64,000 nt of DNA from a virus. Taxonomy: Duplodnaviria > Caudoviricetes. Location of the stretch: IMG/VR virus record IMGVR_UViG_3300010429_001449, one strand, 5' to 3'. A program made the position numbers and the translations under genes. The notes beneath the pieces are model-generated. The model was not told the DNA's origin, made no database searches, and saw nothing but the letters and a program-made list of their open reading frames with translations. Positions within the stretch are counted from its first letter, which is position 1; every line of letters begins with the position of its first letter. This document shows positions 1 through 14,257 of this stretch, in pieces.

Positions 1-33
1 CTGTTATTATAACAGCAAGAACACGAGTGTCAA
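1..33 (-). promoter_or_regulatory. Cassette promoter repeat copy 1 (truncated by window edge)
   Basis: Minus strand TTGACA(33-28)-16 nt-TATAAT(11-6) with CTGTTAT-A-ATAACAG palindrome core. Confidence 0.85.
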
Positions 34-59
34 GAGTCTTTCGGGGATTAAATGGAAGC

Positions 60-90
60 GGGCATTGTGCTGTCTAAAAGCACAATGCCC
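60..90 (-). terminator. Hairpin, putative terminator
   Basis: GGGCATTGTGCT-7 nt-AGCACAATGCCC perfect 12-bp stem downstream of ORF 117..392; weak U-tract. Confidence 0.5.
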
Positions 91-116
91 TAGTAGAGAA
101 TGGGTTGTTGTTCGCC

Positions 117-392
117 CTACGCCGGAAGCGGGGGCTTTGCCGCCGCCTGTTTCAAGACGGCGAGCAGCTTTTGCATGGTCTTGCGCGGGGCGCGGAGAAA
201 CATGGGGGAGCCGTCCCGCGACTTTGCCGACCGCACGTGTATTGCGATCTCCGGCGAGTCGTGGTCATCAGGGTCGACGTAGACCTCGATATGATCCGCC
301 TGGAAAAATCCGTTGCGACCCCAGCCTTCCACGCCAAGACCCTTTACGTCAATCCGCTTCGCGTCTTCGTGAAACCTGATTCTGTCAACCAT
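117..392 (-). CDS. Hypothetical protein (cassette gene, 91 aa)
   Basis: ATG placed after the GGAG of repeat copy 2. Confidence 0.8.
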   Translation of the reverse strand: MVDRIRFHEDAKRIDVKGLGVEGWGRNGFFQADHIEVYVDPDDHDSPEIAIHVRSAKSRDGSPMFLRAPRKTMQKLLAVLKQAAAKPPLPA

Positions 393-400
393 CTTTCTGT

Positions 401-462
401 CTCCACAAAAGGTTTGTTGAACTGTCCTACTGTTATTATAACAGCAGGGCAGCCGATGTCAA
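401..462 (-). promoter_or_regulatory. Cassette promoter/leader repeat copy 2
   Basis: TTGACA-N16-TATAAT, palindrome over -10, AACAAACCTTTTGTGGAG leader. Confidence 0.9.
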
Positions 463-464
463 GA

Positions 465-779
465 CTACTTCCGTCTCTTTTTCCGTCCCCGCCAGTGTTT
501 CTTTTTCTTGCTCCCGGCGAGACGGTCGATATCGTCGCGTATGCGGTCTTGGGTTGCGCCCTTCTGCGCGTCGTTCGCGCTTTGTCCGGCGGCTATCTCA
601 TCTTGGAAGAGGCGTTGTTCTATCTGGAAGCAAGGGGAGCAGTAGCCTACCCAAACGACGTTATTGGGGGAGCTTCCCTCCACTACCTCACCCACAACGC
701 GCCAATCCTGTTTGGCTTGGCCGATATGGGCGTAGTGGTCTTGTCGATCACAACGCATACAATGAATGACGACGCTCAT
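465..779 (-). CDS. Putative zinc-finger protein with basic C-terminal tail
   Basis: MSVVIHCMRC...CSPC and KKKKHWRGRKKRRK tail; stop abuts -35 of repeat 2; start uncertain. Confidence 0.65.
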   Translation of the reverse strand: MSVVIHCMRCDRQDHYAHIGQAKQDWRVVGEVVEGSSPNNVVWVGYCSPCFQIEQRLFQDEIAAGQSANDAQKGATQDRIRDDIDRLAGSKKKKHWRGRKKRRK

Positions 780-844
780 GTTAATGGCAGACAGCCCGAC
801 GGGGGAAGGTCCACCCCGCCGGGCGTCTGCACCTTTCGTGGAGA

Positions 845-1447
845 TCACTCCGAAAAATCCCAGCCGCAATTACGGCAGCGGTAATGAGTCACTTTGCCCA
901 GCTTACCCAAGACGACGCCGGGGCCTCCGCACTTCGGGCAATCGGGCACAACGTCGTCGTCATCGTCGTCGTTCACGCCTTGCGGGGCGCAATCGTCACA
1001 GTAGCCGGTACACTTGTCTTCCTCTTCGTTTGTGAGATCGTTGCCGCAGACAATGCACCGCGCATCTTCCTCATCGTCATCCGTTCCGGCAAGGAAGTAT
1101 TCCCGGACAACTTTCGGGCCGGGACTCCCGCGATCCAAGTCGCGCAGAGCGCAAGCCGCCCGCGCATCGCCCGGCGTGTCGTACTGAGCAACGGCGTCGT
1201 TGCGCGTGTCTATGACCTGCACTTGAACCGCCGTAACACAGTGAACCGCCACGACTTCCCCACAGTCCGTAACGACTATGACGCGGGGTATTTCTCTGCC
1301 CTTGCAATCGCAAGGCCCGGCGTCTGTCACGGCGTCCAAAATGGTACTGATGTTGGAGCGCATTTCCTCCAGGCTCTCCGGAGAGCCGTCATACGCTTCC
1401 GTCCATTCCCTTATTTCCTTCAATGCTTCTTTCGCGGTCAGTTTCAT
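845..1447 (-). CDS. Acidic protein with C-terminal Zn-ribbon motifs
   Basis: Four CxxC pairs (CIVC, CDDC, CPKC, CRNC); starts after repeat 3 RBS. Confidence 0.8.
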   Translation of the reverse strand: MKLTAKEALKEIREWTEAYDGSPESLEEMRSNISTILDAVTDAGPCDCKGREIPRVIVVTDCGEVVAVHCVTAVQVQVIDTRNDAVAQYDTPGDARAACALRDLDRGSPGPKVVREYFLAGTDDDEEDARCIVCGNDLTNEEEDKCTGYCDDCAPQGVNDDDDDDVVPDCPKCGGPGVVLGKLGKVTHYRCRNCGWDFSE

Positions 1448-1455
1448 CTTTGTCT

Positions 1456-1516
1456 CTCCACAAAAGGCTGTCAGACTGTCCTACTGTTATTATAACAGCA
1501 GGACAGTCTATGTCAA
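1456..1516 (-). promoter_or_regulatory. Cassette promoter/leader repeat copy 3 (longest palindrome)
   Basis: AGACTGTCCTACTGTTAT-T-ATAACAGCAGGACAGTCT, 18-bp arms with one mismatch; TTGACA-N16-TATAAT. Confidence 0.9.
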
Positions 1517-1521
1517 GTCCT

Positions 1522-1890
1522 TTAATCCCACCACAGGCGCAACGCGCCGTTCTCTATGTCGGACTCGTCGGCGTGAAGCGCCTTAGCCTTGTCCGCAACC
1601 TTGCGGAGCAGGGCGGGGTTGCCGCGCCCGTAGAGAACAACCGAGAACTCGCGCCCGACGTGCCAGACAAGCTCGTCGTCGGGATCGAGGGCCACGATTT
1701 CGCGGGCAACGACTTCCGGATAGAATTCGTTGTAGCCGCCGATACGAGAAAGGACGCGCCCCAAACAACTTGTTGGAACGCCGCGCCTGACCGCCCACCC
1801 ATAGATCGGGAACTCCCGGCGGTCGCCGTAGTAACCGGCACTTACCACACGAACACCATCACGTAAAGCGTGACTTGCTACAGTAGGCAT
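1522..1890 (-). CDS. Hypothetical protein (cassette gene, ends LRLWWD)
   Basis: Start moved to ATG 1890 (MPTVASH), downstream of repeat 4 RBS. Confidence 0.8.
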   Translation of the reverse strand: MPTVASHALRDGVRVVSAGYYGDRREFPIYGWAVRRGVPTSCLGRVLSRIGGYNEFYPEVVAREIVALDPDDELVWHVGREFSVVLYGRGNPALLRKVADKAKALHADESDIENGALRLWWD

Positions 1891-1899
1891 CTTTCGAGT

Positions 1900-1958
1900 C
1901 TCCACAAAAGGTTTGTTCTGTCCTACCTTTATTATAACAGCACGACGGCCTATGTCAA
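1900..1958 (-). promoter_or_regulatory. Cassette promoter/leader repeat copy 4
   Basis: TTGACA-N16-TATAAT plus conserved leader. Confidence 0.9.
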
Positions 1959-1960
1959 GA

Positions 1961-2446
1961 CTATTTCTTGAGGCGTTGCTTGTGCAGAGCCATGAGATAG
2001 GCGCTCAGGAGAGGGCCGCGCACCACGTCGTCCAATTTAGCGCGGGTGAGGGAGCTTTCGACGGCTGATACAGGCAGACTCGCGTAGTCCCCTTCTCCGT
2101 TACCGTGGCGGGCGGCTACGCTCTGGTGGTCCGGGCTGATATAGAGATAGAGATCATACGCTTCTTTCGTACCGTCGCTGCGATAGTACGAAGAGTCTGT
2201 GCTGCCGAGATACACGAATCCAGTAGCCTTACAGCCGGGCGTCGCCCAACGAGGCGGGCGGTCAACAACCGCGTCGAGATGGGGCTGCGCCAACTCCACG
2301 AAATTGAGCATGTAAAACGTGCGGTGGATCGCGAGTACCGCGTCATCAACCGCTGCCGTCCCTTGATCATCATCTCTGGGAACTACCGCCCAGTAAATCG
2401 TCTCTACAGCCTTGAGGGCCTTCGTCAGTTCCTCTCTTACACCCAT
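1961..2446 (-). CDS. Hypothetical protein, paralog of 2506..2970
   Basis: Shares FVxLG..YDLYL...DHQ...ARxGNGxGxYxS...VxGPLLxA with the neighbouring gene. Confidence 0.85.
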   Translation of the reverse strand: MGVREELTKALKAVETIYWAVVPRDDDQGTAAVDDAVLAIHRTFYMLNFVELAQPHLDAVVDRPPRWATPGCKATGFVYLGSTDSSYYRSDGTKEAYDLYLYISPDHQSVAARHGNGEGDYASLPVSAVESSLTRAKLDDVVRGPLLSAYLMALHKQRLKK

Positions 2447-2454
2447 TGCCGTCT

Positions 2455-2514
2455 CTCCACAAAAGGGGTTGTTCTGTCCTACCTTTATTATAACGGCAGC
2501 AACGGCTATGTCAA
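2455..2514 (-). promoter_or_regulatory. Cassette promoter/leader repeat copy 5
   Basis: TTGACA-N16-TATAAT plus leader; -35 overlaps the last codons of the upstream gene. Confidence 0.9.
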
Positions 2515-2970
2515 GAGATTTCTTTCGAGAGCAACGAGAAAGGCGGTCAGCAAGGGGCCTTGCACGGCGTTTGCCAGATTGACTTCTGTAAGTGATCGCC
2601 GGATTATCTTGGCGGACATACTCTCGTACTCCCCCGCGCCATTACCGAAACGGGCAAAAATCGTTTGGTGGTCAGCGCCATTAACAAGGTACAGATCGTA
2701 AATGACTTGCGTCCTATAAAGGCCGCTACGCGCCCTACCGAGAAAAACGAACTGCTCCTCTCGTTCGGGACGCCAACGGAAACACTCGCCGGGCAGACGC
2801 GCAGCAAGAGCCGCGTCTCTCAACTCTCGCACATTGAGAGCAAAGAAAGCCTCCAGCATCGCGTTTTCCGCAACGTCAAGGGCCTTCTTCGCGTCTTCGT
2901 TCTGAGACAAATCAAGCGTCCAACGAACGCGCTCTAAAGTCTGTCGCGCCGCGCATAACTGTTCTCGCAT
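2506..2970 (-). CDS. Hypothetical protein, paralog of 1961..2446
   Basis: Paralogous motifs; AGGAGG RBS upstream. Confidence 0.85.
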   Translation of the reverse strand: MREQLCAARQTLERVRWTLDLSQNEDAKKALDVAENAMLEAFFALNVRELRDAALAARLPGECFRWRPEREEQFVFLGRARSGLYRTQVIYDLYLVNGADHQTIFARFGNGAGEYESMSAKIIRRSLTEVNLANAVQGPLLTAFLVALERNLLT

Positions 2971-2976
2971 GACATT

Positions 2977-3024
2977 CCTCCTTTGAACCTATCTGTATTA
3001 TAACAGCGGTGGAGAAAGTGTCAA
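2977..3024 (-). promoter_or_regulatory. Cassette promoter copy 6 (short variant)
   Basis: TTGACA-N16-TATAAT followed by AAGGAGG. Confidence 0.85.
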
Positions 3025-3030
3025 GAGTCT

Positions 3031-3465
3031 TTATTCGACAGATTCGCCTTTTTCGTCAACGGCGGAGGTGATAGTCTGGCCGCGTCCTTGTCCTTTGCGC
3101 GAATCATAGAGAAATAGGACGGGCTTATGCACTTTGACGCACTCGGTAGCTAGGACGGCGAGCAGGAGGTTGACTAAGGTCGGTTTATCAAACGGCCCGC
3201 TGGGGAGATCGCGGCCACGCCGCCAGTCTTCACCGGCGCGGGGCTTGCGGGAGCGCACGGAGCAACTGATGCTACCCGTCTCGACCTGGCCGCACGGAGG
3301 TATTAGCGTGAACACGTACTCGTTAACATCGGTAAAGAGGTGGAAACGGATACGCCCGCGCCGCGAATCAACGTAGGAGAGATCGTTGGCGCGGCAACCG
3401 ACCCGATTGAAAAAGTCCGGGGGGAACCACGATAGGAAAAGTTCCAGGCTTTCGTCGAGAGTCAT
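3031..3465 (-). CDS. Hypothetical phage protein
   Basis: AAGGAG RBS before ATG 3465 (MTLDESL); contains RKPRAGEDWRRGRDLPSGPF; possible TGGACA-N17-TATTAT promoter upstream. Confidence 0.75.
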   Translation of the reverse strand: MTLDESLELFLSWFPPDFFNRVGCRANDLSYVDSRRGRIRFHLFTDVNEYVFTLIPPCGQVETGSISCSVRSRKPRAGEDWRRGRDLPSGPFDKPTLVNLLLAVLATECVKVHKPVLFLYDSRKGQGRGQTITSAVDEKGESVE

Positions 3466-3533
3466 GGGAAATACTCCTTTTGGGCGTAACGCCGTATTGA
3501 AAATAATAGCCCAGGGCGGGGGCGGTGTCCAGT

Positions 3534-3569
3534 TAAACACCGAAAGCCCCGTCGGCGGGGCTTCGGTGG
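3534..3569 (-). terminator. Putative intrinsic terminator
   Basis: CACCGAAGCCCCG-CCGA-CGGGGCTTTCGGTG followed by TTTA, downstream of 3604..4026. Confidence 0.65.
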
Positions 3570-3603
3570 CCTTTGTGGAGGATTCTATACTCCCCCGGTA
3601 ATC

Positions 3604-4026
3604 TCAGAAAGGCGGCTCCTCACGAGCAACAGGCGGCGTCGCAACCGCAAGGCCGTGCCGGAGAAAGAGTTGATGCTTTTCCTCTGCCACGTCCAGACAC
3701 CCGTCGTAACGGGCGCGGATAAGCTCTGCCGCGACATGCCAGAGCGCGTCGGCCAGTCGCCAGAGCGTCCTTTCCTCAAGACTCGGGTCGATGTCAACCA
3801 GAGCAAGCGTCTCTCCCGCATGAACCACGCGCAGCGCGATTACAGGGGGCGTCTCGGAAGGCTCTTCGTCCCAAAACGGGCAGACAAACACAGCCTGAGA
3901 CAACTCGGCAACCGTCGGATGATCCGGCAGGTACGCAGAGTGCCAAACGCGCTCCTCGCCGTCCGCGCCAGGCGTGGTCACAACCACTTCCATGTTGAAG
4001 GTGTCAGCGATATGTACGTGCGGCAT
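3604..4026 (-). CDS. Hypothetical protein (MPHVHIAD...)
   Basis: Start coupled by TAATG to an 11-codon leader ORF (4026..4061). Confidence 0.75.
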   Translation of the reverse strand: MPHVHIADTFNMEVVVTTPGADGEERVWHSAYLPDHPTVAELSQAVFVCPFWDEEPSETPPVIALRVVHAGETLALVDIDPSLEERTLWRLADALWHVAAELIRARYDGCLDVAEEKHQLFLRHGLAVATPPVAREEPPF

Positions 4027-4068
4027 TAGTTGCCCCCTTCCTCTGTGAGCGTCTTGGTCATTTTCTGT

Positions 4069-4128
4069 CTCCACAAAAAGGTTTGTTCTATCCTACCTTT
4101 ATTATAACAGCAGGACAGCCAGTGTCAA
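4069..4128 (-). promoter_or_regulatory. Cassette promoter/leader repeat copy 7
   Basis: TTGACA-N16-TATAAT plus leader. Confidence 0.9.
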
Positions 4129-4136
4129 GGGGAGGT

Positions 4137-4508
4137 TTAACCTAGTTCGGTTGCGTCCACGACACCATCAACCGACACTACAGCACTGCACAAGTGCCAT
4201 TGCAAAGTGCCCATCTTAATCTTGTAAGCCTTACAGAAGAGTTTGACACGATCATACACACCGGCGAGATCGCCCAAATCAAACACGGAAGGGTCAACGA
4301 CAGCGCTCTCCGACGTCGACACGCGGCAATGCGACTTGTCCAGCAAGACGCAGAGACGACCCACATGGTCGCTGTGCAAGATGCCCACACAGATATCATC
4401 CCCGACGGGATAACACCCTATATCCGACTGGTAGTAGTTCAGCGCTTTCACGCTGGCCGCGTCAGTCACAAAGAAACCAAAGAACAATGTCGCGTAACTT
4501 TTCTGCAT
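4137..4508 (-). CDS. Hypothetical protein (MQKSYAT...)
   Basis: ATG after the AGGAG of repeat 8. Confidence 0.75.
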   Translation of the reverse strand: MQKSYATLFFGFFVTDAASVKALNYYQSDIGCYPVGDDICVGILHSDHVGRLCVLLDKSHCRVSTSESAVVDPSVFDLGDLAGVYDRVKLFCKAYKIKMGTLQWHLCSAVVSVDGVVDATELG

Positions 4509-4518
4509 GGCTTTGTCT

Positions 4519-4557
4519 CTCCTACTGCTATTATAACCGCGCAACCGTCTATGTCAA
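4519..4557 (-). promoter_or_regulatory. Cassette promoter copy 8 (short; left half of divergent pair)
   Basis: TTGACA-N16-TATAAT-AGCAGTAGGAG. Confidence 0.85.
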
Positions 4558-4585
4558 GTCTTATTCAGAAAATATTTATCCCCTC

Positions 4586-4643
4586 TTGACAGAGGCCGCG
4601 CCGCCGTTATAATAAAAGTAGATTCAACTAACCTTTTGTGGAG
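4586..4643 (+). promoter_or_regulatory. Cassette promoter/leader copy 9 (plus strand)
   Basis: TTGACA(4586)-N16-TATAAT(4608)...AACCTTTTGTGGAG. Confidence 0.9.
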
Positions 4644-4651
4644 ACAGGACA

Positions 4652-4951
4652 ATGACGAAAGCGAAGCGACGCAAGACGGACCTCTTTCACACGCTCAAGG
4701 ACTACTACCTTGAGGGTCAGTGGTTCCTTGACCGCGTAGGCAATCTGTACATCGTGCCCGCAACCTACGCATCGTGCCAACCGATAATCGGCCCCGGCGA
4801 TGACGACGCCCGCGTCATCGAAGCCCTGGAAGAATCCCGCGCCGCCAATGACGGCGAAGTCACGGAAAGCGTCATGCTCGACTGGGATTTGCTCCCCATA
4901 GGACCAGACGTGCGCCGATTCTCCGAACAGCGGGGTTATTTCTATCTTTAA
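4652..4951 (+). CDS. Hypothetical protein (cassette gene)
   Basis: ATG after repeat 9 RBS; stop abuts -35 of repeat 10. Confidence 0.8.
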   Translation: MTKAKRRKTDLFHTLKDYYLEGQWFLDRVGNLYIVPATYASCQPIIGPGDDDARVIEALEESRAANDGEVTESVMLDWDLLPIGPDVRRFSEQRGYFYL

Positions 4952-4954
4952 CCC

Positions 4955-5014
4955 TTGACATAGGGCGTCCTGCTGTTATAATAACAGTAGGATAGAACAA
5001 ACCTTTTTGTGGAG
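4955..5014 (+). promoter_or_regulatory. Cassette promoter/leader copy 10 (plus strand)
   Basis: TTGACA(4955)-N16-TATAAT(4977), palindrome, AACAAACCTTTTTGTGGAG. Confidence 0.9.
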
Positions 5015-5023
5015 AACAAAGCA

Positions 5024-5221
5024 ATGACGAAAGAAACGACCGTCAAAGAGACGACCGCCAACGACAGGCTGATAGCCGCCGCGCCGGACCTGCTGGAAGC
5101 GTGTAAGCTGGCTTACGCGGCGCTGAAGCCCGGTGATGTTCGCAAGGACTTCAGCGGACACGTTGCGAAAGCCGCTCTGGGCAATGCAATCTACAAGGCG
5201 GAAGGGAAAATACCTCAGTAA
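5024..5221 (+). CDS. Small phage protein with AN(A/D)RLIAAAPDLL motif
   Basis: Motif common in small phage ORFs; ATG 5024 after RBS. Confidence 0.8.
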   Translation: MTKETTVKETTANDRLIAAAPDLLEACKLAYAALKPGDVRKDFSGHVAKAALGNAIYKAEGKIPQ

Positions 5222-5239
5222 CCTTTTTGGAGAGAGACA

Positions 5240-5593
5240 GTGATACACACAGACGACAAAGTAATAGTTACGAGCAGCGTACCGGATGGCTACGCTCGTT
5301 TCGTGAGTGAAGTCGGGATAGTCCTAGACGTTTCCGATGACGGGATTGCACTCGTGGAAGTGTACGACCCCGATTCGGATAACATCGAGGAAGTGCCTTT
5401 CGAGATCGAGCATCTGACCCTTGCCAGCGATGACGATGCAAGGCTGGCGATGTTCCGCCTGCTGGCTAACGCGGCGGCGGACGCGGCGGGCGTGGGCGAG
5501 TGTGACGCCGAGACGCTGGAGAAGATGCTCGACGCGATGCTGAACGTGTACAACAAATCCGATTACATCCTCACCGTCAAGAAAGGGGGCTAA
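5240..5593 (+). CDS. Hypothetical acidic protein
   Basis: GTG preceded by promoter-less leader remnant AACCTTTTTGGAGAG. Confidence 0.75.
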   Translation: MIHTDDKVIVTSSVPDGYARFVSEVGIVLDVSDDGIALVEVYDPDSDNIEEVPFEIEHLTLASDDDARLAMFRLLANAAADAAGVGECDAETLEKMLDAMLNVYNKSDYILTVKKGG

Positions 5594-5594
5594 C

Positions 5595-5831
5595 GTGCCG
5601 CCTACTGTTTTGGTACCCATACAAATGACTCCCGAAATGTGGGAGAGAGTCCGCGAGTCCGCCGACGCTTCCCGCGTAGGGAGCGTGGACGCTGACGACA
5701 AGGCGTACAACGCGAAGCTGGTCGATGACGCGGAGAACTTCCGGCTGACGAGAGCCGTCCGTATGGAAGTCTGCGACTTGGTCTATCTCGCTCTGTTCGG
5801 CGCAAGCCCTCAGCCTGGAGCAAAGATATGA
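5595..5831 (+). CDS. Hypothetical protein
   Basis: Tight operon packing between neighbours. Confidence 0.65.
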   Translation: MPPTVLVPIQMTPEMWERVRESADASRVGSVDADDKAYNAKLVDDAENFRLTRAVRMEVCDLVYLALFGASPQPGAKI

Positions 5832-6028
5832 ACCCGAAATACCCGGAAATTGAAGTAGAGTTGACGGGGCGGGACAGCAACGCCTACGCCATACTAGGCG
5901 GCGTGACCCGCGCCCTACGCCTGGCCGGAGTCTCGAAAGAGGAACAGGAAGCGTTCTGCGCCGAAGCCACAAGCGGCGACTACGATCATCTGCTGCAGAC
6001 AGCTATGCGGTGGGTAACAATCACCTGA
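5828..6028 (+). CDS. Small conserved phage protein
   Basis: LxGxDxNAxAILGxVxxAL...ATSGDYDHLL pattern; ATGA overlap and GGAG RBS. Confidence 0.8.
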   Translation: MNPKYPEIEVELTGRDSNAYAILGGVTRALRLAGVSKEEQEAFCAEATSGDYDHLLQTAMRWVTIT

Positions 6029-6044
6029 AAAGAGGAATCTTCCC

Positions 6045-6833
6045 GTGACATGGAATCCTGAAAGTCTGAAACATCTGAACTCGCTAACCAAGTTTCCGTC
6101 GATTTTCCAACCGTGGGCGGCGGTACAGCAAGACAAGCGACCGTGCTACGTCGGCGACATCATTTCCAACAAGTTCAGCCAATCTGTGTTCCGCGTCACC
6201 GAGAAGGTGGACGGAACCAATGCGCGGCTGATCGTTACGGACGATGGATGGTTCATCGGCGCTAGAGAAGAACTGCTGGCCTACAGCTACGACTTGCTGG
6301 TCCACGAACAGAACTTCATCGTGGAGACCTTGCGGCCTATCGCCGAAGTCGTTGCCCACGGCATTGCCGAAGGCTTGCGGAACGAACCGTTTGGCGCGGT
6401 CGTGCTTTACGGAGAGGTGTTCGGCGACGGTATCCAGAAACGGTACCGTGGACAGCCACGCGGTTTCCGCGTGTTCGCAACCCGACGTTGCATGTGGGAA
6501 GTCTCGCCGAATCCCCAAGTCTGGCGGCAAACCAGCACGGGCTTCGACTTTCGAGGCAGTCTCAATGCGGCGCAAGAATTCGTTGACGCCTACGGGCGCG
6601 GCGTGTTGACTACCGTACCCGACCTAGGTTGGGTTTCCGGCGACGTTCTCGCCGATCCCCGCGCTGCGCTGGCGTGGCTAAGACGGTTTTCCGACTCCCG
6701 CGCCGTGCCGGGCGCTCAGTGCGAAGGCGTAGTGTTACTGAGCGACGGCGACTACACGAAGGCGGACGACGGCAGTCTTCAACGGAACATCCACAAGATC
6801 AAGTTTGAGGATTTTCCGAGGGAGTGGCTATGA
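6045..6833 (+). CDS. ATP-dependent RNA ligase (Rnl2-like nucleotidyltransferase)
   Basis: Motif I TEKVDGTN, YGEVFGDGIQK, FRVF, EGVV, C-terminal KIK. Confidence 0.8.
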   Translation: MTWNPESLKHLNSLTKFPSIFQPWAAVQQDKRPCYVGDIISNKFSQSVFRVTEKVDGTNARLIVTDDGWFIGAREELLAYSYDLLVHEQNFIVETLRPIAEVVAHGIAEGLRNEPFGAVVLYGEVFGDGIQKRYRGQPRGFRVFATRRCMWEVSPNPQVWRQTSTGFDFRGSLNAAQEFVDAYGRGVLTTVPDLGWVSGDVLADPRAALAWLRRFSDSRAVPGAQCEGVVLLSDGDYTKADDGSLQRNIHKIKFEDFPREWL

Positions 6834-7045
6834 AACCGTGTAATCGCTGCGGCAAGTGCTGTAAGGGAAGTCCCTGCGGTCTCGCCGAGAAGCACGGCAT
6901 GGTTCAACCCCCGAACCGTCCTTGCGTCGCCCTAGTAAGGATCGGCGGCTATTATAGCTGCGGTCTGCTTGTGAACGCGAAGCCCCGCGAGGCCGCCGAG
7001 ATCAGGAAGGCCCTGAAGATTGGGGAAGGCTGTCATTTGTGGTGA
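6830..7045 (+). CDS. Small Cys-cluster protein (CxxCxxCC, YkgJ-like metal binding)
   Basis: CNRCGKCC...PC...PC...C; GGGAG RBS. Confidence 0.6.
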   Translation: MKPCNRCGKCCKGSPCGLAEKHGMVQPPNRPCVALVRIGGYYSCGLLVNAKPREAAEIRKALKIGEGCHLW

Positions 7046-7313
7046 CGCCGAGAGCAGCCTTGAGGCCGTCCGATGGAGGCACTTGATGCACGAATCGGGC
7101 GGCCTCTTTTCCATTCAGGAAAACGATGGTAGTCGGGATTTCCAATACGTCATAGAATGCGGCCCGAGCGCGGCCTTGCGGATCGTCGGTATTGAAAAAC
7201 GTAACGTCCGCCGCGACGCCCCATTTGGGGAGTTTGACCGCCATCATGCTTTTGGTACTGGCGCACTTGGGGCAGCCGGGTTTGCCGAAAATGAAAATCT
7301 CTTTGTCGTTCAT
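7002..7313 (-). CDS. Thioredoxin/glutaredoxin-like protein (NrdH-like)
   Basis: IFIFGKPGCPKC active site, cis-Pro IPT; ATGA overlap with the nrdD stop. Confidence 0.85.
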   Translation of the reverse strand: MNDKEIFIFGKPGCPKCASTKSMMAVKLPKWGVAADVTFFNTDDPQGRARAAFYDVLEIPTTIVFLNGKEAARFVHQVPPSDGLKAALGVTTNDSLPQSSGPS

Positions 7314-9418
7314 GCGTGAACCCCTACGTGATACTGTCCTCGCCTGCGAGCGTGAAGCTCTCCAATCTTCGACTGGTTCCACTTGCTCGTGCGGCTGAAG
7401 TAGCCGACGATACGCGACATTCCGTCAACTTCTGTGCAACCACAAAACAGGCACTTCTCGTGGACGCCCACAGACTTACGATGACAGGAGTGGCAGATCG
7501 TGAACTCAGGCGAGATGGTTAGTTGCGCGGTGTTGGTTTTGGCTAACGTCAGATCAACTAGGCGATAGAGACTCTGCGCATCGGGAAGTTTCTCACCAAC
7601 GAAGGCGTGGGTGATTGCGCCCGCGTCGATCATGCCGTGGAACTTGGCCTGCAGCTTGATGCGCGTTACGAGGTCCACGTCGGCGTCGGCGCGGACATGG
7701 ACACTGTTGGTGTAATAGATATCGTCGTTCTCCAGACTGCCGCGTACAACGGACTTGGCCTCCTGGTAACGCGCAACATCCAGCTTGGCGAGCCGCCGAG
7801 TAGCGCTTTCCGCCGGGGATTCCTCTAATGAAAATCCGTAGCCGGTAGCTGCGGTCTCCTTGACACACCGATCCTGCATGTGGGACACGATGTCCAGACC
7901 GAGCATCAGTGCCTCGTTGGACTCGTGCAACTCCTTACCCGTGCAGTGTTTAACGCACTCGTTCAAACCGAGCAGCCCTACGATGTACGTAGCCTTCTTG
8001 AGATCGATGTAAGGCGATCCGTCCGGCGTCTCGCGGCCAACTTGCCAGAGCGGAAGACCCGCGCCCATCAAGGATTGGACGAAGTCGCGCTTGACGCTGT
8101 GCGCCTCGAACGCCAGCGACATGGCGGTATCGATGTGGTGATAAAGCGCTCCCACATCCCCTCCCGCCCGATACGCGGCCTGTGGGAGATTAATCGTGAC
8201 GTTCTGGAAGCCGCAGAAGCGCAGGCGTTCCGGGTGCTTGATCATCTCGATGTCGGTAATGATCGTTTTGAGACGGCAGCAGGCAGCCACGGTCATGGCG
8301 TTGCGGTCGAACACGAAGTACGGAGAGCCGTTCTCGCTGGCGACTTGGCAAGCGTATTCGAGCAGCTTGCGCTGTCTGGCCCGCTTGAACGTCATCTTGT
8401 CGATGTGAATGTCGCATTTCGGGAACGGGAAGATGTTGCCGTCGGCGTCGCCTTCGCGGTACACGTCGAGCAGGGCTTTAGCGAAGCGTTGTACCTCGCG
8501 CTCGTACTCGCCGTAGGTTTTGCCTGTCGGCTTGCCGCCCGGCCCTATAGCCGGAATATTGCGAAGATAAGAAGGGACGCCTAGATGGATGTTGAAGTCC
8601 AAGAAGAGCGTCTGGCCGCCCCGCGAGAAGGCGTTTTGGGAACAGGAGTAGATGAGGTACTGGGCTTCCTGCTTCACTTCCTTGTCGGAAAGGCCGACGA
8701 GGTAAGGGGCATAGAAGATGTTGAGGTAGGCCAACCCGAGCGCCCCGGCGTAGTAAGCCTGCATTGAGGCTAGGAAGGTGTTGAGGTGTCCTGTCAGAAC
8801 GCGGGCGTGTTTGGCGGGGGAACTGGCCGTGGCCAGGTTGTCCAGGCGCAGCCCAAACATCTTCAGCCATTCGAGCGAATGACCCGAGCAGTAGACGCGG
8901 ATGGGGTAGCCGAGATCGTGGAGATAGATACGTCCTTCGCGGTGGGCGTCTGCTATGTGTCGCGGGAAGACGCACTCAAGGGCGTACTGTTTGAAGATGA
9001 TCTCGTTGACCGTCTGCGCCACGGCTTCTGGACTGTTAGCAACGATGTTGCTGTTCTCTTTGTTGGGAGTGCGAATGATGTTGTCCAGGTCGTACTTCGG
9101 AATGCCTATGACGGTCTGCTGGCGCAACTGAGTCGTCAGGCCGCGCTCGAACAACTCGTTGTTGACCAGCGAACGAACGAGAGTCGTGTCTACACGGGCC
9201 ATACCACTTTTGATAATCCGTTCCTCCACGACGCGGGCGATATCAAAAGCGGTCTCGTGGGGCACTCCGGCTTCGCGGCTCAGGGCGTCTGCGATCTTGT
9301 CCCTATCCCAGGGATGGTACTCTTCCGCAGTTGCGCCGTTGACGAGAAGGGAAAGGTCTGTAGCGGACGTTTTGACACGGGTTTTACGGACGGTTATACC
9401 CGCAGCTTGTGGGTTCAT
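7310..9418 (-). CDS. nrdD: Anaerobic (class III) ribonucleoside-triphosphate reductase with ATP cone
   Basis: N-terminal ATP cone, IYLHDL, YCSGHS, FPFP, ACCRL, ESPAES, YYTNS, CxxC..CxxC, glycyl-radical RIVGY. Confidence 0.95.
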   Translation of the reverse strand: MNPQAAGITVRKTRVKTSATDLSLLVNGATAEEYHPWDRDKIADALSREAGVPHETAFDIARVVEERIIKSGMARVDTTLVRSLVNNELFERGLTTQLRQQTVIGIPKYDLDNIIRTPNKENSNIVANSPEAVAQTVNEIIFKQYALECVFPRHIADAHREGRIYLHDLGYPIRVYCSGHSLEWLKMFGLRLDNLATASSPAKHARVLTGHLNTFLASMQAYYAGALGLAYLNIFYAPYLVGLSDKEVKQEAQYLIYSCSQNAFSRGGQTLFLDFNIHLGVPSYLRNIPAIGPGGKPTGKTYGEYEREVQRFAKALLDVYREGDADGNIFPFPKCDIHIDKMTFKRARQRKLLEYACQVASENGSPYFVFDRNAMTVAACCRLKTIITDIEMIKHPERLRFCGFQNVTINLPQAAYRAGGDVGALYHHIDTAMSLAFEAHSVKRDFVQSLMGAGLPLWQVGRETPDGSPYIDLKKATYIVGLLGLNECVKHCTGKELHESNEALMLGLDIVSHMQDRCVKETAATGYGFSLEESPAESATRRLAKLDVARYQEAKSVVRGSLENDDIYYTNSVHVRADADVDLVTRIKLQAKFHGMIDAGAITHAFVGEKLPDAQSLYRLVDLTLAKTNTAQLTISPEFTICHSCHRKSVGVHEKCLFCGCTEVDGMSRIVGYFSRTSKWNQSKIGELHARRRGQYHVGVHA

Positions 9419-9476
9419 CGCGGCCTCCTATTTGTCCCGGTAAGCCATAAAAAGAAGTACGGTTCGGTAGATTTAT

Positions 9477-9505
9477 ACTATACAGCCACGATGTCAAAAA
9501 GTCAA
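9477..9505 (-). promoter_or_regulatory. Putative promoter of nrdD
   Basis: TTGACT-N17-TATAGT. Confidence 0.55.
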
Positions 9506-9813
9506 GCGACGCTCTCAGAATTCGCTTGCTGTCGCTCCAATTCTTCCGGCGTTATTCCCATGAAGGTGGATAGAGACACGAGCATACGGGTCTTATGGAT
9601 AGTTTCCACGGCGATAGCGGTCTCGAACCACAGACGGCCACGGTAAAGAATGGTCGGCATTCGAGCGAAGTACCGGCACTTCGGGCAGACGACAAGAGAG
9701 TCGTCGCCCAAGCGATCTGCAATGTTGGCGACCAATTCTTCCTGGCACATTTTGCAGAAAGCGCCCGTGCGCCGGAAAGAAGTCAGGTTGCCGGAATACA
9801 AGGCGTACGGCAT
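9502..9813 (-). CDS. Hypothetical Zn-finger protein
   Basis: CKMC...CPKC; TAATG coupling with upstream gene. Confidence 0.7.
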   Translation of the reverse strand: MPYALYSGNLTSFRRTGAFCKMCQEELVANIADRLGDDSLVVCPKCRYFARMPTILYRGRLWFETAIAVETIHKTRMLVSLSTFMGITPEELERQQANSESVA

Positions 9814-10307
9814 TAGCCAGCCTCCTGCAAGGCGATGCGAAGAAGTTCTTCGGGCGGCGCGTCAGGATGCTCCGCCTTAACCCTGGCAGCCACGTTCTCC
9901 GCTTCCCTAGTCGCAAACCCCATCTTTTTCAGCGCCGCCACGATGTCAGCAGGCGCTTCCGGGGCCGCTGGCGGGCCTACAGGCGTAGAAACGTTGTTAG
10001 AGGTGTCAGAAGCCCTCTTCGAGGGCTTTCGCTCCCTGGCGGGTCGTTGCGCGGCGTTGTTCACGGCTTTCAGCGAGTCGCAACCGCACTGGAAGCACAG
10101 ATACTGCTTAATGGGGACGCCCTGTTCGAGAGAAAGCCAGCAACCGTCGGGCTGTCCCCAGCCACAGTTCGTGCAAACGCACCGCACCGAGTACTTTTCA
10201 GGTTGAAGGGGCACGTGGTGTTCTCTCTGGATCGGCGGGGGTGTCCGACTTCGATCCAACACCCACGCGGCAGTGAATGCACTCAAGATTTTTTGGATCG
10301 GATTCAA
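9813..10307 (-). CDS. Zn-finger protein with C-terminal RuvA domain III-like module
   Basis: CTNC...CFQC; C-term DIVAALKKMGF..REAENVAARV....EELLRIALQ resembles RuvA_C; GGAGG before TTG. Confidence 0.7.
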   Translation of the reverse strand: MNPIQKILSAFTAAWVLDRSRTPPPIQREHHVPLQPEKYSVRCVCTNCGWGQPDGCWLSLEQGVPIKQYLCFQCGCDSLKAVNNAAQRPARERKPSKRASDTSNNVSTPVGPPAAPEAPADIVAALKKMGFATREAENVAARVKAEHPDAPPEELLRIALQEAG

Positions 10308-10401
10308 CGGGTTCCTCCCACGGATACGCCCACAGCTTGCGCCCGCACTTGCGGCACTTCCCTACGACAACCATCTCGTCCCAAGCATCAAATGCCGCCA
10401 T
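10198..10401 (-). CDS. Small Zn-finger protein (overlaps next gene)
   Basis: CRKC...CIHC; AAGGAG RBS right at the upstream stop. Confidence 0.5.
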   Translation of the reverse strand: MAAFDAWDEMVVVGKCRKCGRKLWAYPWEEPVESDPKNLECIHCRVGVGSKSDTPADPERTPRAPST

Positions 10402-10402
10402 A

Positions 10403-10714
10403 TCACTCTCCTTGCGCGTCGGGAGTAACCACGCCGAGACGGTCGTTGACCGCTTCCACCTTGTCCATATCTACCGTCCGAACCCGGCGCTTGCGGGATA
10501 CGCCGCCAACCACCGTCTTCAATTGCACAAGACGGTTGTTACGCCGCCCGCTGAGCCGCCAGACGGGTTCTCCGGAAAACCGGTCGTCCGGGATGATCTC
10601 GATTGCCGTGACCGTACGCCCGCGACAATCCGAAAGATTCTCTCTGATGTTGATGATGCCACCGTCAACTTCAATGTGCGTCCAACCCAACACGTTTTTC
10701 GAGACCTTAGCCAT
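10403..10714 (-). CDS. Hypothetical protein (cassette gene)
   Basis: ATG after GGAGG of repeat 11. Confidence 0.8.
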   Translation of the reverse strand: MAKVSKNVLGWTHIEVDGGIINIRENLSDCRGRTVTAIEIIPDDRFSGEPVWRLSGRRNNRLVQLKTVVGGVSRKRRVRTVDMDKVEAVNDRLGVVTPDAQGE

Positions 10715-10722
10715 GTCCGTAT

Positions 10723-10781
10723 CCTCCGTAAAAAAGGTTTCTGTCCTACTGTTATTATAACAGCAGGACAGCGTATGTCAA
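10723..10781 (-). promoter_or_regulatory. Cassette promoter/leader copy 11
   Basis: CTGTCCTACTGTTAT-T-ATAACAGCAGGACAG; TTGACA-N16-TATAAT. Confidence 0.9.
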
Positions 10782-10803
10782 GAGAGTTAACAGAGAAAGA
10801 AGC

Positions 10804-11184
10804 TTATCCAGCCGCCTTGATCAACCGCTGGATTTTCGGCGTGACGCATTCCGGCGCGGCGTCCGCCCACTCGATCACGTCATCTAGCGTAACGGTGTCA
10901 GTGCCGGGAACCGTGTAGTCCCAGCCCGCACTTTTGCACATGCGCTTGCACAGGGCAATAATACGGTCCTCTCGATCCAACCACGGCACATTGCCGTATT
11001 GGTCATCCGTCATTATCGCCACCGTATGTCCGGACGATTGGACCTCCCGGATTTCGTAGGTGCGATTCTTTAACACTCTCTCCCACACATGCACCGTCAG
11101 GTTGTTCAGCTTGCCCAGTTCAAACAAACGGGCCGCCGCATTGCTCTGCTGGCGAAATGCTATCGCTGCAAAATCTGTAGACAC
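10804..11184 (-). CDS. Hypothetical protein (cassette gene)
   Basis: GTG 11184 after GGAGG of repeat 12. Confidence 0.75.
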   Translation of the reverse strand: MSTDFAAIAFRQQSNAAARLFELGKLNNLTVHVWERVLKNRTYEIREVQSSGHTVAIMTDDQYGNVPWLDREDRIIALCKRMCKSAGWDYTVPGTDTVTLDDVIEWADAAPECVTPKIQRLIKAAG

Positions 11185-11192
11185 GTTCGTAT

Positions 11193-11246
11193 CCTCCGAA
11201 AAAGGTTTCTCTACCTTTATTATAACAGCGGAAACATCTATGTCAA
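11193..11246 (-). promoter_or_regulatory. Cassette promoter/leader copy 12
   Basis: TTGACA-N16-TATAAT-AAAGGTAG...CCTTTTTCGGAGG. Confidence 0.9.
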
Positions 11247-11254
11247 GACGCATT

Positions 11255-11287
11255 AAAAGAAAAGGGGCCGGGATTTCTCCCGGCCCC
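11255..11287 (-). terminator. Intrinsic terminator
   Basis: GGGGCCGGGA-GAAA-TCCCGGCCCC then TTTTCTTTT. Confidence 0.9.
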
Positions 11288-11301
11288 AATCAGGACGGCG
11301 G

Positions 11302-11883
11302 TTAGGCCGCTTTGCGAGCGGCGGCGTTGATGACTTTTTCGCCGAAGGCGGCGACGAAGGCGGCCCGCAGCTTGGGATCGTTGTGGTACGGATCGCCCTT
11401 CGTAGGCTTGCCCAAGAAGCTGCCGAGCAGAAACATATCGCCAGCGGCGAGACACTTGCCGATTTCCTCTTTGATCCACTTGTCGCGGAGCAGAGCTTCC
11501 CACACCGCGCCGCTCACGTCCTCGAAGTGGCGCTCCGCGACTTGATGAAGGTTGTAGCCGTCCTTGCAGTAGCCGCCCGCCTTGTCTTTGGCGTCCAGGT
11601 GGTCGGGACCGGCTAAATCGGGCGGAACGAACTTGCCGGGATCGGAGTAATCACCGGATATGACGATTTGATCCCCAGCCCAACTGCCGACGACCGGAAG
11701 ATCGTCGACGCCCATAAGATCACCGCCGCCGCGCCCGTTGCCGTCCGCCAGAAGAATGGCGAGACCGAGCATAGTGGCGTTGCCGCTGGAACCGAACTCC
11801 AGCAACTTCAAGCCGTCGCTGAACTTGTGCGGATGAATGAACTGACGCTTGGTCACGTTCACCGGAAAGTAGTACTGACCCAT
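11302..11883 (-). CDS. Conserved phage protein (MGQYY...GSWAGD family)
   Basis: MGQYYFPVN.TK..FIHPH..GLKL.E and GxWAGD motifs; after repeat 13 RBS. Confidence 0.85.
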   Translation of the reverse strand: MGQYYFPVNVTKRQFIHPHKFSDGLKLLEFGSSGNATMLGLAILLADGNGRGGGDLMGVDDLPVVGSWAGDQIVISGDYSDPGKFVPPDLAGPDHLDAKDKAGGYCKDGYNLHQVAERHFEDVSGAVWEALLRDKWIKEEIGKCLAAGDMFLLGSFLGKPTKGDPYHNDPKLRAAFVAAFGEKVINAAARKAA

Positions 11884-11891
11884 CGTTCTGA

Positions 11892-11958
11892 CCTCCACAA
11901 AAGGGAAAAGGTTTGTTCTGTCCTACCTTTATTATAACAGCAGGACAGCCAATGTCAA
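11892..11958 (-). promoter_or_regulatory. Cassette promoter/leader copy 13
   Basis: TTGACA-N16-TATAAT; leader with a small CCTTTT duplication. Confidence 0.9.
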
Positions 11959-11962
11959 GGGA

Positions 11963-12316
11963 TCAACTGGCCGCAAGGCCGAAAAAGACGAAAGGCTTTC
12001 CGCCCTTCTTGGCAAGCTGTTCCAGCAGCCAGCGGGATGTTCCGCAACCGGCTTCCGCGAGCTTCTTGATGCGCGGCACGGAAAGAGGAATGCAGCCGCA
12101 CTCTCCCCACTTATCGAAATCGAAGCCGTGCCTCTCCGCATACTCGAAGGGGTCTTCGCCCGCCGGAACGCGCACGATAGTAAAGCCGTCCGTCGTACTG
12201 ATCGTGCCGTTGTAAAGATCATGCCCGTAATCGTACACAGCGGCACGAACAGCAGCCTTGTAAGCGGCCTCTGCCGTCTTACCCACAGCAGCTTGAACGA
12301 ACTTCTCAGCACCCAT
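11963..12316 (-). CDS. Conserved small phage protein (MGA...YGHxxYNGTIST)
   Basis: ATG after repeat 14 RBS; ends FVFFGLAAS. Confidence 0.85.
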   Translation of the reverse strand: MGAEKFVQAAVGKTAEAAYKAAVRAAVYDYGHDLYNGTISTTDGFTIVRVPAGEDPFEYAERHGFDFDKWGECGCIPLSVPRIKKLAEAGCGTSRWLLEQLAKKGGKPFVFFGLAAS

Positions 12317-12323
12317 CTTTGTT

Positions 12324-12383
12324 CTCCACAAAAAGGTTTGTTCTGTCCTACCTTTATTATAACAGCAGGACAGGCTATGTCAA
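12324..12383 (-). promoter_or_regulatory. Cassette promoter/leader copy 14
   Basis: TTGACA-N16-TATAAT, palindrome, leader. Confidence 0.9.
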
Positions 12384-12390
12384 GAGCAGG

Positions 12391-12422
12391 AAACGAAAAG
12401 GGCCGGGATTTCTCCCGGCCCT
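12391..12422 (-). terminator. Intrinsic terminator (same core as 11255..11287)
   Basis: GGGCCGGGA-GAAA-TCCCGGCCC then TTTTCGTTT. Confidence 0.9.
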
Positions 12423-12428
12423 GGTTGA

Positions 12429-12902
12429 CTACTCGACGCGGGCGGCGACGAGTTTCTTCTGTTCCTTGATCTTGCCGTTGACCCACTTGGCGAAAGCGGG
12501 GCCGTCGCCCTTGAACAGCACCTTCTTACCGGACTCCATGACGGTGACAGTGACGGTGCGAGATACAACGCCACCCGGCTCTCCACAGTACGATCCTCTG
12601 TTGATGACGTACTGGTAGGACGTGTCTTTCCAGTCCTTCTTGGGCCAACGGCCTTCGACGTAAACGTTGCCGACGCAGTCCTTGAGCCGCGCCACAAGCT
12701 GCGCCGCCAAACAGCCCATGCCGTTGGCGACCTTGCCCAACCGGTCACTGTCGCCGCTGCCAAGTCCGTTGATGATCTGCACCTTCCCCAGCAACGCGGC
12801 AAGGTCTTCGCCGTGCCTTTCGGGATTACCGTCAAACTGACGGTAGAGCGTCATCACGTGCCGCTTGCCGTCCATCACAACTGTCAGTGATCGCGTTCCC
12901 AT
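12429..12902 (-). CDS. Conserved phage protein (MGTRS...YxxxDGxP family)
   Basis: MGTRSLT..YRQFDGNP...ANGMGCLAAQLVA; ATG 12902 after repeat 15 RBS. Confidence 0.85.
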   Translation of the reverse strand: MGTRSLTVVMDGKRHVMTLYRQFDGNPERHGEDLAALLGKVQIINGLGSGDSDRLGKVANGMGCLAAQLVARLKDCVGNVYVEGRWPKKDWKDTSYQYVINRGSYCGEPGGVVSRTVTVTVMESGKKVLFKGDGPAFAKWVNGKIKEQKKLVAARVE

Positions 12903-12910
12903 CTTTACGA

Positions 12911-13009
12911 CCTCCACAAAAAGGTTTGTTTTGTCCATCCGTCCTACCTCTATTATAACAGCAGGACGGCCTATGTCAAGTATTATAACAGCGAAACCGC
13001 CGTTGTCAA
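12911..13009 (-). promoter_or_regulatory. Cassette promoter/leader copy 15 with a second tandem promoter
   Basis: Two consecutive TTGACA-N16-TATAAT units (13009-12982 and 12979-12952). Confidence 0.9.
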
Positions 13010-13018
13010 TACAGAAAA

Positions 13019-13105
13019 TGGTAGGGATGGGGGGATTCGCACCCCCAAGGGCATTGCGCCCACGGCGTCTTAAGCGCCGTGCGTTTGCTGTTTCGCCACA
13101 TCCCC
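13019..13105 (-). tRNA. trnL: tRNA-Leu(UAA)
   Basis: Cloverleaf with long variable arm, CT-TAA-GA loop, encoded CCA; non-canonical A18/G55. Confidence 0.85.
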
Positions 13106-13450: not shown

Positions 13451-13527
13451 GTGAAAGACGGGGGCGCGGACAGCCGTCGGGTAGGTCTCGGGAATGACTT
13501 GTTAACTTTTGCCCGCGCCCCACGAAA

Positions 13528-14067: not shown

Positions 14068-14091
14068 AACGCATTCCTTTCTGTCGAGAAA

Positions 14092-14167
14092 TGGTACTCG
14101 CGCCGGGACTTGAACCCGGAATCTCCGGTTTAGGAAACCGACGCCTTGTCCGTTGGGCTACGCGAGT
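14092..14167 (-). tRNA. trnR: tRNA-Arg(CCU)
   Basis: ACTCGCG/CGCGAGT acceptor, TT-CCT-AA, TTCAAGT T-loop, CCA. Confidence 0.9.
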
Positions 14168-14179
14168 TTGGTAATCTTG

Positions 14180-14256: not shown

Positions 14257-14257
14257 A

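Follow-up and report, generated by a model that had tools for sequence, protein, structure and literature searches.

A large and regular array of PeSL-type promoter cassettes in an uncultured jumbo phage

PeSLs (promoter-early stem-loops), the mobile promoter cassettes of T4-type phages, have been described in RB49/phi1, PST/T4, and nt-1/KVP40 (Arbiol et al. 2010, PMC2839356; Comeau et al. 2014, PMC4122927). Their stem-loops, with G-T pairs marked, lie mostly between the -35 box and the -10 box or overlap the -10, and one of them reduced reporter expression as a strong terminator would; the mapped crossovers fell between -10 and ATG (PMC2839356; PMC4122927). Here, we describe a comparable array at positions 1–13009 of a 64,000-nt stretch of viral DNA (IMG/VR record IMGVR_UViG_3300010429_001449), the whole of which is referred to as the window and which corresponds to positions 33158–97157 of a 268,817-bp virus contig, ~77% complete. 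The source is an uncultured jumbo phage with 56% G+C, and the reading presented here is drawn from its sequence. An initial annotation of the window had described a repeat in 15 copies, each heading one or a few small genes, as an array of self-contained promoter-leader-gene cassettes. The array is a real, large, and very regular one of the PeSL type, in a phage unrelated to the T4 group; it adds a good example to a kind of system already known. With a probability of roughly 0.65, we consider it to be the early, fast-changing gene region of the phage, built from PeSL-type expression cassettes. Comparisons are drawn mainly with a related metagenomic locus, L133.

The repeat unit and its hairpin

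The promoter sequence TTGACA-N16-TATAAT occurs without mismatch at 18 sites in the window, as compared with none in 100 shuffles. Sixteen of these sites lie within 1–13009, 14 on the minus strand and two on the plus strand, and the other two are located at 16277–16304, heading a tRNA array, and at 21017–21044. Alignment and repeat families define a unit of ~70 nt. It opens with a near-perfect sigma70-type promoter whose -10 is TGT-extended; a conserved start region and a leader rich in U follow, and then a GGAG ribosome site positioned 6–9 nt ahead of the start codon. The units are real and not a product of chance. Each of the 15 repeat starts given in the initial annotation maps to an exact promoter, and the start at 12911 holds two tandem promoters, hence the 16 units listed below, with gene lengths in amino acids (aa).

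6–33, minus strand: promoter unit P33 (promoter 6–33); its leader and gene (427 aa, Ntn-hydrolase-like) pass the left window edge
393–462, minus strand: unit P462, promoter 435–462 plus leader; heads gene 117–392 (91 aa)
1448–1516, minus strand: unit P1516, promoter 1489–1516; heads 845–1447 (200 aa, weak HNH-like C-terminus) and 465–869; strongest hairpin of the window, -26.3 kcal/mol
1891–1958, minus strand: unit P1958, promoter 1931–1958; heads gene 1522–1890 (122 aa)
2447–2514, minus strand: unit P2514, promoter 2487–2514; heads gene 1961–2446 (161 aa); upstream stop 2506 inside the promoter
2971–3024, minus strand: unit P3024 with a short atypical leader, promoter 2997–3024; heads gene 2506–2970 (154 aa)
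4062–4128, minus strand: unit P4128, promoter 4101–4128; heads a relic open reading frame (ORF), then 3604–4026 and 3031–3465
4509–4557, minus strand: unit P4557 with a truncated leader (21 nt), promoter 4530–4557; heads gene 4137–4508 (123 aa)
4586–4651, plus strand: unit P4586f, promoter 4586–4613, divergent from P4557; heads gene 4652–4951 (99 aa)
4955–5023, plus strand: unit P4955f, promoter 4955–4982; heads 5024–5221, 5240–5593, 5595–5831, 5828–6028, 6045–6833 (RNA ligase), and 6830–7045
10715–10781, minus strand: unit P10781, promoter 10754–10781; heads 10403–10714 (103 aa), then the NrdD operon; 14-pair hairpin followed by a T run
11185–11246, minus strand: unit P11246 with a short leader, promoter 11219–11246; heads gene 10804–11184 (126 aa)
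11884–11958, minus strand: unit P11958, promoter 11931–11958; heads gene 11302–11883 (193 aa, kept in L133)
12317–12383, minus strand: unit P12383, promoter 12356–12383; heads gene 11963–12316 (117 aa, not in L133)
12903–12979, minus strand: unit P12979, promoter 12952–12979; heads gene 12429–12902 (157 aa, not in L133)
12982–13009, minus strand: solo promoter P13009 without its own leader, the next -35 beginning 2 nt past its -10; read as a rearrangement scar

Ten units have 38–47 nt between the -10 and the start codon, and three have fewer (2997–3024, 4530–4557, and 11219–11246). As for the remaining three, 4101–4128 combines a standard leader with an 11-codon relic, the start codon behind 12952–12979 is taken as 12902, and 12982–13009 has no leader of its own. 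Each unit heads one to six genes, mostly ORFans, and the upstream gene ends 2–8 nt from the -35 or inside the promoter, except at three classical terminators, the only ones present (60–90, 11264–11287, and 12399–12422). The close juxtapositions of stop codon and -35 that had been pointed out earlier (465/462, 1522/1516, 1961/1958, 4951/4955, and 11963/11958, with stop 2506 inside a promoter) are all correct. The promoters 4530–4557 (minus strand) and 4586–4613 (plus strand) form a divergent pair with 28 nt between them. Nearly all intergenic DNA in the array is repeat unit, which is carried at ~60% of the gene boundaries, and terminator-like sites overall are not enriched (20 found versus 18 expected).

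Across the whole contig, 88 promoter sites are present at a tolerance of one mismatch, and the spacer is 16 nt long in 85 of them. Between contig positions 5 and 47 kb, 45 units share the common leader, and the array reaches ~28 kb to the left of the window, in agreement with the earlier proposal that it continues beyond the left edge. Beyond 57 kb, 37 sites display the promoter core only, without the shared leader, and their -10 is TATACT in 30 cases. The -10 variants, all with a 16-nt spacer, differ by contig region, with TATATT mostly at 5–21 kb, TATAAT at 10–54 kb, and TATACT from 57 kb up to the contig end; this last group shows another base preference after the -35 and no common leader. 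These regional variants may represent different temporal classes.

In about two thirds of the window units, a hairpin overlaps the -10. Its arms are formed by the last 12 nt of the spacer and the 12 nt that begin 2 nt past the -10, while the -10 itself sits in a 7-nt loop. When folding is restricted to the arms, ten of the 16 window units reach -10 kcal/mol or lower, with a minimum of -26. Permutations with swapped arms attained the native pairing in 0 of 5000 trials for the contig (45 units), in 1 of 5000 for the window, and in 3 of 5000 for L133; in the fixed register, 74% of the cells pair, as compared with 33–56% when the partner is slid. The clearest compensated pairs are found in parts of the array outside the window. 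Folding is better for the sense than for the antisense strand, a bias that is also observed in promoters outside the array, and composition may be its source. The inner palindrome CTGT-N7-ACAG was considered as a LexA box and rejected, since its spacing is N7 (the E. coli LexA box has N8) and the outer arms covary, which speaks for base pairing rather than a fixed site bound by a protein. A classical terminator was likewise dismissed in most units, given that ~8 nt separate the stem from the T run; only one unit hairpin, at 10741–10771, passed the terminator pattern. The hairpin is a feature already described for PeSLs and not a new one, because the PeSL paper gives the same placement and G-T pairs and reports terminator activity for one such stem-loop.

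Gene turnover and exchange between units

Relatives of the array are scarce in the collections searched. Megablast of window positions 1–13100 against GenBank phages gave no match, tblastn against the same phages reached a best identity of 31%, and the NrdD protein used as a query found no relative in IMG/VR. Two promoter/leader patterns returned just unrelated single matches in IMG/VR, with no copies of the unit in its other phages. A metagenome scan with NrdD yielded one true relative, L133 (NrdD 76% identical), which comprises 22.1 kb of a 30.5-kb contig with 57% G+C and carries 13 promoters that share the promoter type and leader of the window. The remaining 18 loci of that scan, with 60–70% G+C and without such promoters, are probably cellular. 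A shorter locus, L155 (4.2 kb, NrdD 77%), represents a third lineage; L156 matches L133 at 99.9% identity. Three other samples yielded contigs whose NrdD is identical and which agree with the phage at 100% over stretches of up to 22 kb; ERZ795054, ERZ761563, and SRR5007146 are samples in which the phage is present. A query for further relatives with the 427-aa gene behind P33 returned short contigs only.

Gene content changes far faster in the array than in the block adjoining it. Ten of the 25 window array genes (40%) have no partner in L133, as compared with none of the nine genes of the adjoining block, which spans 16318–20995, has no internal promoter, and corresponds gene for gene to L133 positions 54–3955. 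Conversely, eight of 23 L133 genes have no partner in the corresponding part of the window. The gene order of the array backbone is kept in L133. The following further features of the window bear on the comparison.

60–90, minus strand: intrinsic-terminator-like hairpin between gene 117–392 and P33
3534–3603, minus strand: intergenic stretch between genes 3604–4026 and 3031–3465, with a 12-nt complement of the leader and ribosome site, then a terminator hairpin
4026–4061, minus strand: 11-codon relic ORF behind P4128, a remnant of a 129-aa gene intact in L133
5222–5239, plus strand: orphan 3' part of a leader, promoterless, after the stop of 5024–5221 and ahead of 5240–5593
7002–10307, minus strand: conserved core inside the array, with 9813–10307 (RuvA_C-like), 9502–9813, NrdD 7310–9418, and 7002–7313
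11264–11287, minus strand: intrinsic terminator upstream of P11246
12399–12422, minus strand: intrinsic terminator upstream of P12383, almost a copy of that at 11264–11287
16277–16304, minus strand: promoter of the tRNA/small-RNA array, with the same core and a different downstream sequence
21480–22817, minus strand: RecA-like recombinase gene

Ten rearrangements were recognized, of which four are bounded by units at both ends, three at one end, and three at neither end. Among those bounded at both ends, window genes 12429–12902 and 11963–12316 stand opposite a 24-codon copy of a gene start and a LAGLIDADG-type endonuclease gene in L133 (event 1), and window gene 4137–4508, a 123-aa ORFan, stands opposite L133 positions 13880–16403 (event 2), where an EcoRI-type adenine methyltransferase (E 9e-133), a 103-aa gene, and a GmrSD_N plus HNH nuclease lie under the promoter orthologous to 4530–4557. 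The tandem paralogous cassette pair at 1961–3024 is present only in the window (event 3), and the cassette 18335–18754 only in L133 (event 4). In the events bounded at one end, window genes 10804–11184 and 10403–10714 stand opposite a single 100-aa gene in L133 (event 5); the homologue of 5828–6028 occupies a different slot in L133, and the left junction retains the five first bases of a -35 (event 6); and 5240–5593, which is not in L133, lies behind the promoterless leader remnant 5222–5239 in the window and behind a full unit in L155 (event 7). The events that touch no unit comprise the lack of 5595–5831 inside the operon in L155 (event 8), an operon-end replacement in which the RNA ligase and 6830–7045 stand opposite an L133 gene whose homologue lies 3 kb to the left of the window (event 9), and an internal deletion at a short run of shared bases, by which the 129-aa gene of L133 was reduced to the relic 4026–4061 (event 10). 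Whole promoter-plus-gene cassettes are gained or lost, cargo is replaced under orthologous promoters, and several scars lie inside units.

At the slot of event 1, L133 positions 7044–8145 hold a unit, a diverged copy, 24 codons long, of the following gene's 5' end, a LAGLIDADG-like gene (7209–8075), and a second unit with the full gene. This arrangement looks like the insertion of a homing endonuclease that brought or duplicated a promoter and a gene start.

On breakpoints inside the repeat, expected if the cassettes are shuffled through it, the comparison gives a mixed picture, and a breakpoint in the repeat is also expected from selection against broken genes. Because nearly all intergenic DNA is repeat unit, the position of a breakpoint cannot separate exchange promoted by the repeat from selection for intergenic breakpoints.

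The sequence variants of the units offer a better test. The start region behind the -10 carries TAGGN in 13 of the 15 window units and never TAGTG, whereas at the orthologous sites of L133, TAGTG is present in 11 of 12 units and TAGGA in none. Both variants occur in the one genome in separate zones, TAGTG filling contig positions 5–23.5 kb and TAGGA 29–46 kb, which argues against a change in a trans-acting reader. Furthermore, the sequence distance between units rises with their genomic distance (Mantel r 0.22, 0 of 5000 permutations). Promoters outside the family evolve ordinarily, since the control at 16277–16304 keeps a private downstream sequence in common with its L133 orthologue. Orthologous and paralogous units compared in a fixed register differ little (0.41 versus 0.43), because a 2-nt indel shifts the register, and the count of variants is the clearer measure. 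For a block-wise switch at no fewer than 10 orthologous sites, either units must have been copied onto one another or many changes must have occurred in parallel. This concerted evolution supports the exchange between units that had been proposed for the array, and it constitutes evidence, indirect though independent, that units recombine with or convert each other.

Competing explanations

In the explanation that we favor, an early, fast-changing region composed of PeSL-type cassettes, host RNA polymerase would fire all units at the start of infection. The hairpin would form in read-through RNA arriving from the upstream cassette and would attenuate or punctuate it, as was measured for the stem-loops of RB49/phi1 PeSLs, and the shared ~70 nt would provide sites at which phage homologous recombination could exchange, duplicate, or delete cassettes with expression unbroken. 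The RecA-like protein may drive this exchange, with breaks made by homing endonucleases possibly helping, and ordinary illegitimate deletions and insertions would act alongside. Repeat-mediated shuffling is plausible on these grounds, and other mechanisms clearly operate next to it. The initial annotation had named the phage RecA and nucleases as candidates for the shuffling in view of the lack of a site-specific recombinase, and this lack holds for the whole contig: the Pfam models for tyrosine (PF00589) and serine recombinases found no match in its 269 kb, while the positive controls of the PF00589 search matched.

Alternatively, the units may be strong early promoters and ribosome sites that are kept alike by selection on expression and have no role in recombination, with turnover due to illegitimate recombination and homing endonucleases, and with breakpoints located in units only for want of other intergenic DNA. 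We regard this as a serious account, if a distinctly less probable one. The promoter core is used contig-wide, including the 37 sites beyond 57 kb that have no shared leader; a LAGLIDADG endonuclease gene sits at one replaced slot of L133; and the three events without a unit include one that is a plain internal deletion at short shared bases. However, the spacer and the first transcribed bases are conserved, which promoter strength alone would not fix, and the 2-nt leader variant differs block-wise between phages, is zoned within the genome, and shows a similarity that decays with distance, all of which needs copying or repeated duplication. The tandem paralogous cassettes at 1961–3024 also argue against selection as the only cause.

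Two further proposals concern a dedicated mobility of the unit, and both appear very unlikely. As an element resembling a miniature inverted-repeat transposable element, the unit would copy itself ahead of genes, which would suit its presence ahead of unrelated genes, its internal palindrome, and the solo and partial copies at 12982–13009 and 5222–5239. Nevertheless, unit alignments display no terminal inverted repeats or target-site duplications, every unit is set precisely between a stop and a start codon, no copies were found in other IMG/VR phages, and no tyrosine or serine recombinase was detected in the contig, a search that left transposase families aside. The integron-like comparison made in the initial annotation fares slightly worse still. 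An imperfect palindrome that folds better on one strand does lie at every cassette boundary, and it could in principle act as an attC site to be folded and cut by a site-specific recombinase. This attC-like reading was rejected, given that no Pfam model for tyrosine or serine recombinases matched in the 269 kb (the contig being ~77% complete); neither an integrase nor attC or attI sites were found, promoters are carried by the cassettes themselves, a working -10 lies at the centre of the palindrome, and PeSLs are alike without an integrase.

Several observations weigh against the favored explanation itself. Three of the ten events touch no repeat (events 8, 9, and 10), and the four that are bounded at both ends are no commoner than chance, given that units occupy ~60% of the gene boundaries. 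Pair variation in the window hairpins is limited, with a single pair type at most positions, and the consensus itself accounts for much of the pairing. The T run comes only ~8 nt after the promoter hairpin, and just three of the 16 units have a classical terminator. With ~65% protein identity, L133 is the sole relative on a long contig, and crossovers are unmappable at the base level; no within-population variants were seen among the three other assemblies of the phage, all of which are 100% identical. Finally, the labels "early" and "host sigma70" are drawn by analogy.

Sequences complementary to the leader suggest one conceivable reason for its uniformity. The transcript of 3534–3603 places the 12-nt complement of the leader and ribosome site directly 5' of a terminator (~3545–3590); the 12-nt block and the terminator form the conserved core of that spacer in L133 (17285–17345), with compensated changes in the terminator stem. 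Additionally, a scan for orphan leader copies located a 22-nt antisense copy outside the window, at contig positions 226217–226240. It belongs to a candidate RNA of ~87 nt without an ORF (226156–226242, minus strand), which has an 11-bp closing stem, a U7 tail, and a z value of -4.3. Its own promoter, TTGACA-N16-TATACT, lies directly ahead, and the whole locus (226156–226276) corresponds to positions 5157–5277 of locus L157. The 22 nt are complementary to the start region and ribosome site of the cassette leaders, and pairing at or below -18 kcal/mol is predicted for 36 of 45 early leaders, as compared with 2 of 36 other promoter-proximal regions; since the candidate RNA is a reverse copy of the consensus, this result expresses a capacity to pair and not a function. 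Rfam gave no match for the candidate, and no relatives of the gene next to it turned up among the collected proteins. The candidate lies just downstream of tRNA genes. It is conceivable, although we consider it doubtful, that the leader is kept uniform as a common handle for such a phage antisense RNA; if so, one phage-made RNA would shut off the entire early set at once.

Cargo and comparison with known systems

Positions 1–13009 contain 25 genes, of which NrdD (7310–9418), an RNA ligase (6045–6833), and a RuvA_C-like protein (9813–10307) were identified, and the HNH-like tail of 845–1447 is a weak match. A PHROGs scan of 20 cargo genes found no family for 16, the precomputed Pfam marks are blank for most genes, and Rfam over positions 1–17000 reported tRNAs only. 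The tandem paralogues 1961–2446 and 2506–2970 share 37% identity, and neither is present in L133. The cargo had been taken for a bank of host-takeover or anti-defence genes, and the identifiable part does lean to defence and counter-defence (the RNA ligase, and in L133 the methyltransferase and the GmrSD/HNH nuclease, with a LAGLIDADG endonuclease at another place in the array); with 16 of 20 genes outside any family, we infer such a role for the bank as a whole only tentatively.

Some observations on individual genes stand apart from the argument. In the left part of the array, a paralogous family of three members with 29–44% identity (contig 2994–3632, 11390–11989, and 20249–20920) adjoins a promoter unit in each case. 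The RNA ligase DNA is 82% identical between L155 (2590–3373) and the window (6051–6831) while the adjacent NrdD is just 72% identical, and the ligase is not in L133; this is consistent with the ligase having been exchanged more recently. In the tRNA array (13019–15841, versus L133 positions 4672–6557), tRNA-Ser(CGA) and tRNA-Leu(UAA) are found only in the window, and the anticodon of tRNA-Glu is CTC in the window versus TTC in L133. A 117-aa gene at L133 positions 4066–4419 is present in L133 only and not in the window. The 427-aa gene behind P33 (contig 31838–33121, immediately left of the window) is similar to AAT/CBAH-type Ntn-hydrolases, and its nearest clusters are from Planctomycetota. 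The closest cellular homologues of NrdD (59–63% identity) likewise belong to Planctomycetota, anammox bacteria included; together, the two genes give a hint of a Planctomycetota-like host.

The described systems resemble the array to different degrees. The host-takeover module of phage SPO1, reportedly presented by Stewart and co-workers in 1998, was named in the initial annotation as a counterpart. Both comprise many short early genes, mostly of unknown function, all or nearly all of them with a strong promoter for the host sigma factor and a strong ribosome site (early-gene table, PMC13401047), with the term "early" being presumptive for the present array. However, the module of SPO1 is located in the terminal redundancy, and no description presents it as a family of repeats that share a leader or hairpin. 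The array shares with integrons a bank of exchangeable single-gene cassettes and an imperfect palindrome per boundary. Integron cassettes are promoterless and read from one common promoter, whereas here no integrase, attI, or attC is present, each cassette brings along a promoter, and it is this promoter that forms the palindrome. In the early region of T7, promoters are few and located at one end, and RNase III sites separate the genes; a hairpin between cistrons punctuates read-through early transcripts there, as it presumably does here, but T7 employs dedicated processing sites while in the array each hairpin wraps a promoter.

The closest likeness is to PeSLs, as the initial annotation had recognized: the promoter, overlapping stem-loop, ribosome site, abutting stop, and ORFan cargo are all matched. 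Both combine a strong sigma70-like promoter, a stem-loop with G-T pairs that overlaps the -10, a ribosome site, and a start codon, with the upstream stop codon at the edge of the unit and the units dense among small ORFans. In both, relatives differ by the insertion, deletion, and replacement of cassettes, and scars lie between the -10 and the ribosome site. Unlike the known PeSL carriers, the present phage is not T4-like by the Pfam models for T4-type capsid and portal proteins, which found no match in the contig (searches run without a positive control, on a contig ~77% complete), and its G+C content is 56%. Here, no A+T-rich block lies upstream of the -35 because genes abut it; moreover, the stem is not of the GGGG...CCCC type, and the leader is far more uniform.

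The PeSL design is thereby extended beyond T4-type coliphages and vibriophages to an unrelated, G+C-richer, uncultured jumbo phage, in which 45 units in ~42 kb make an unusually large and regular case. The concerted evolution of its regulatory repeats adds a line of evidence on recombination between units that, while indirect, is independent. In practical terms, the units mark which unknown genes are probably expressed first, and they flag variable slots in which defence and counter-defence genes may be swapped, such as the L133 slot with a methyltransferase and a GmrSD-type nuclease.

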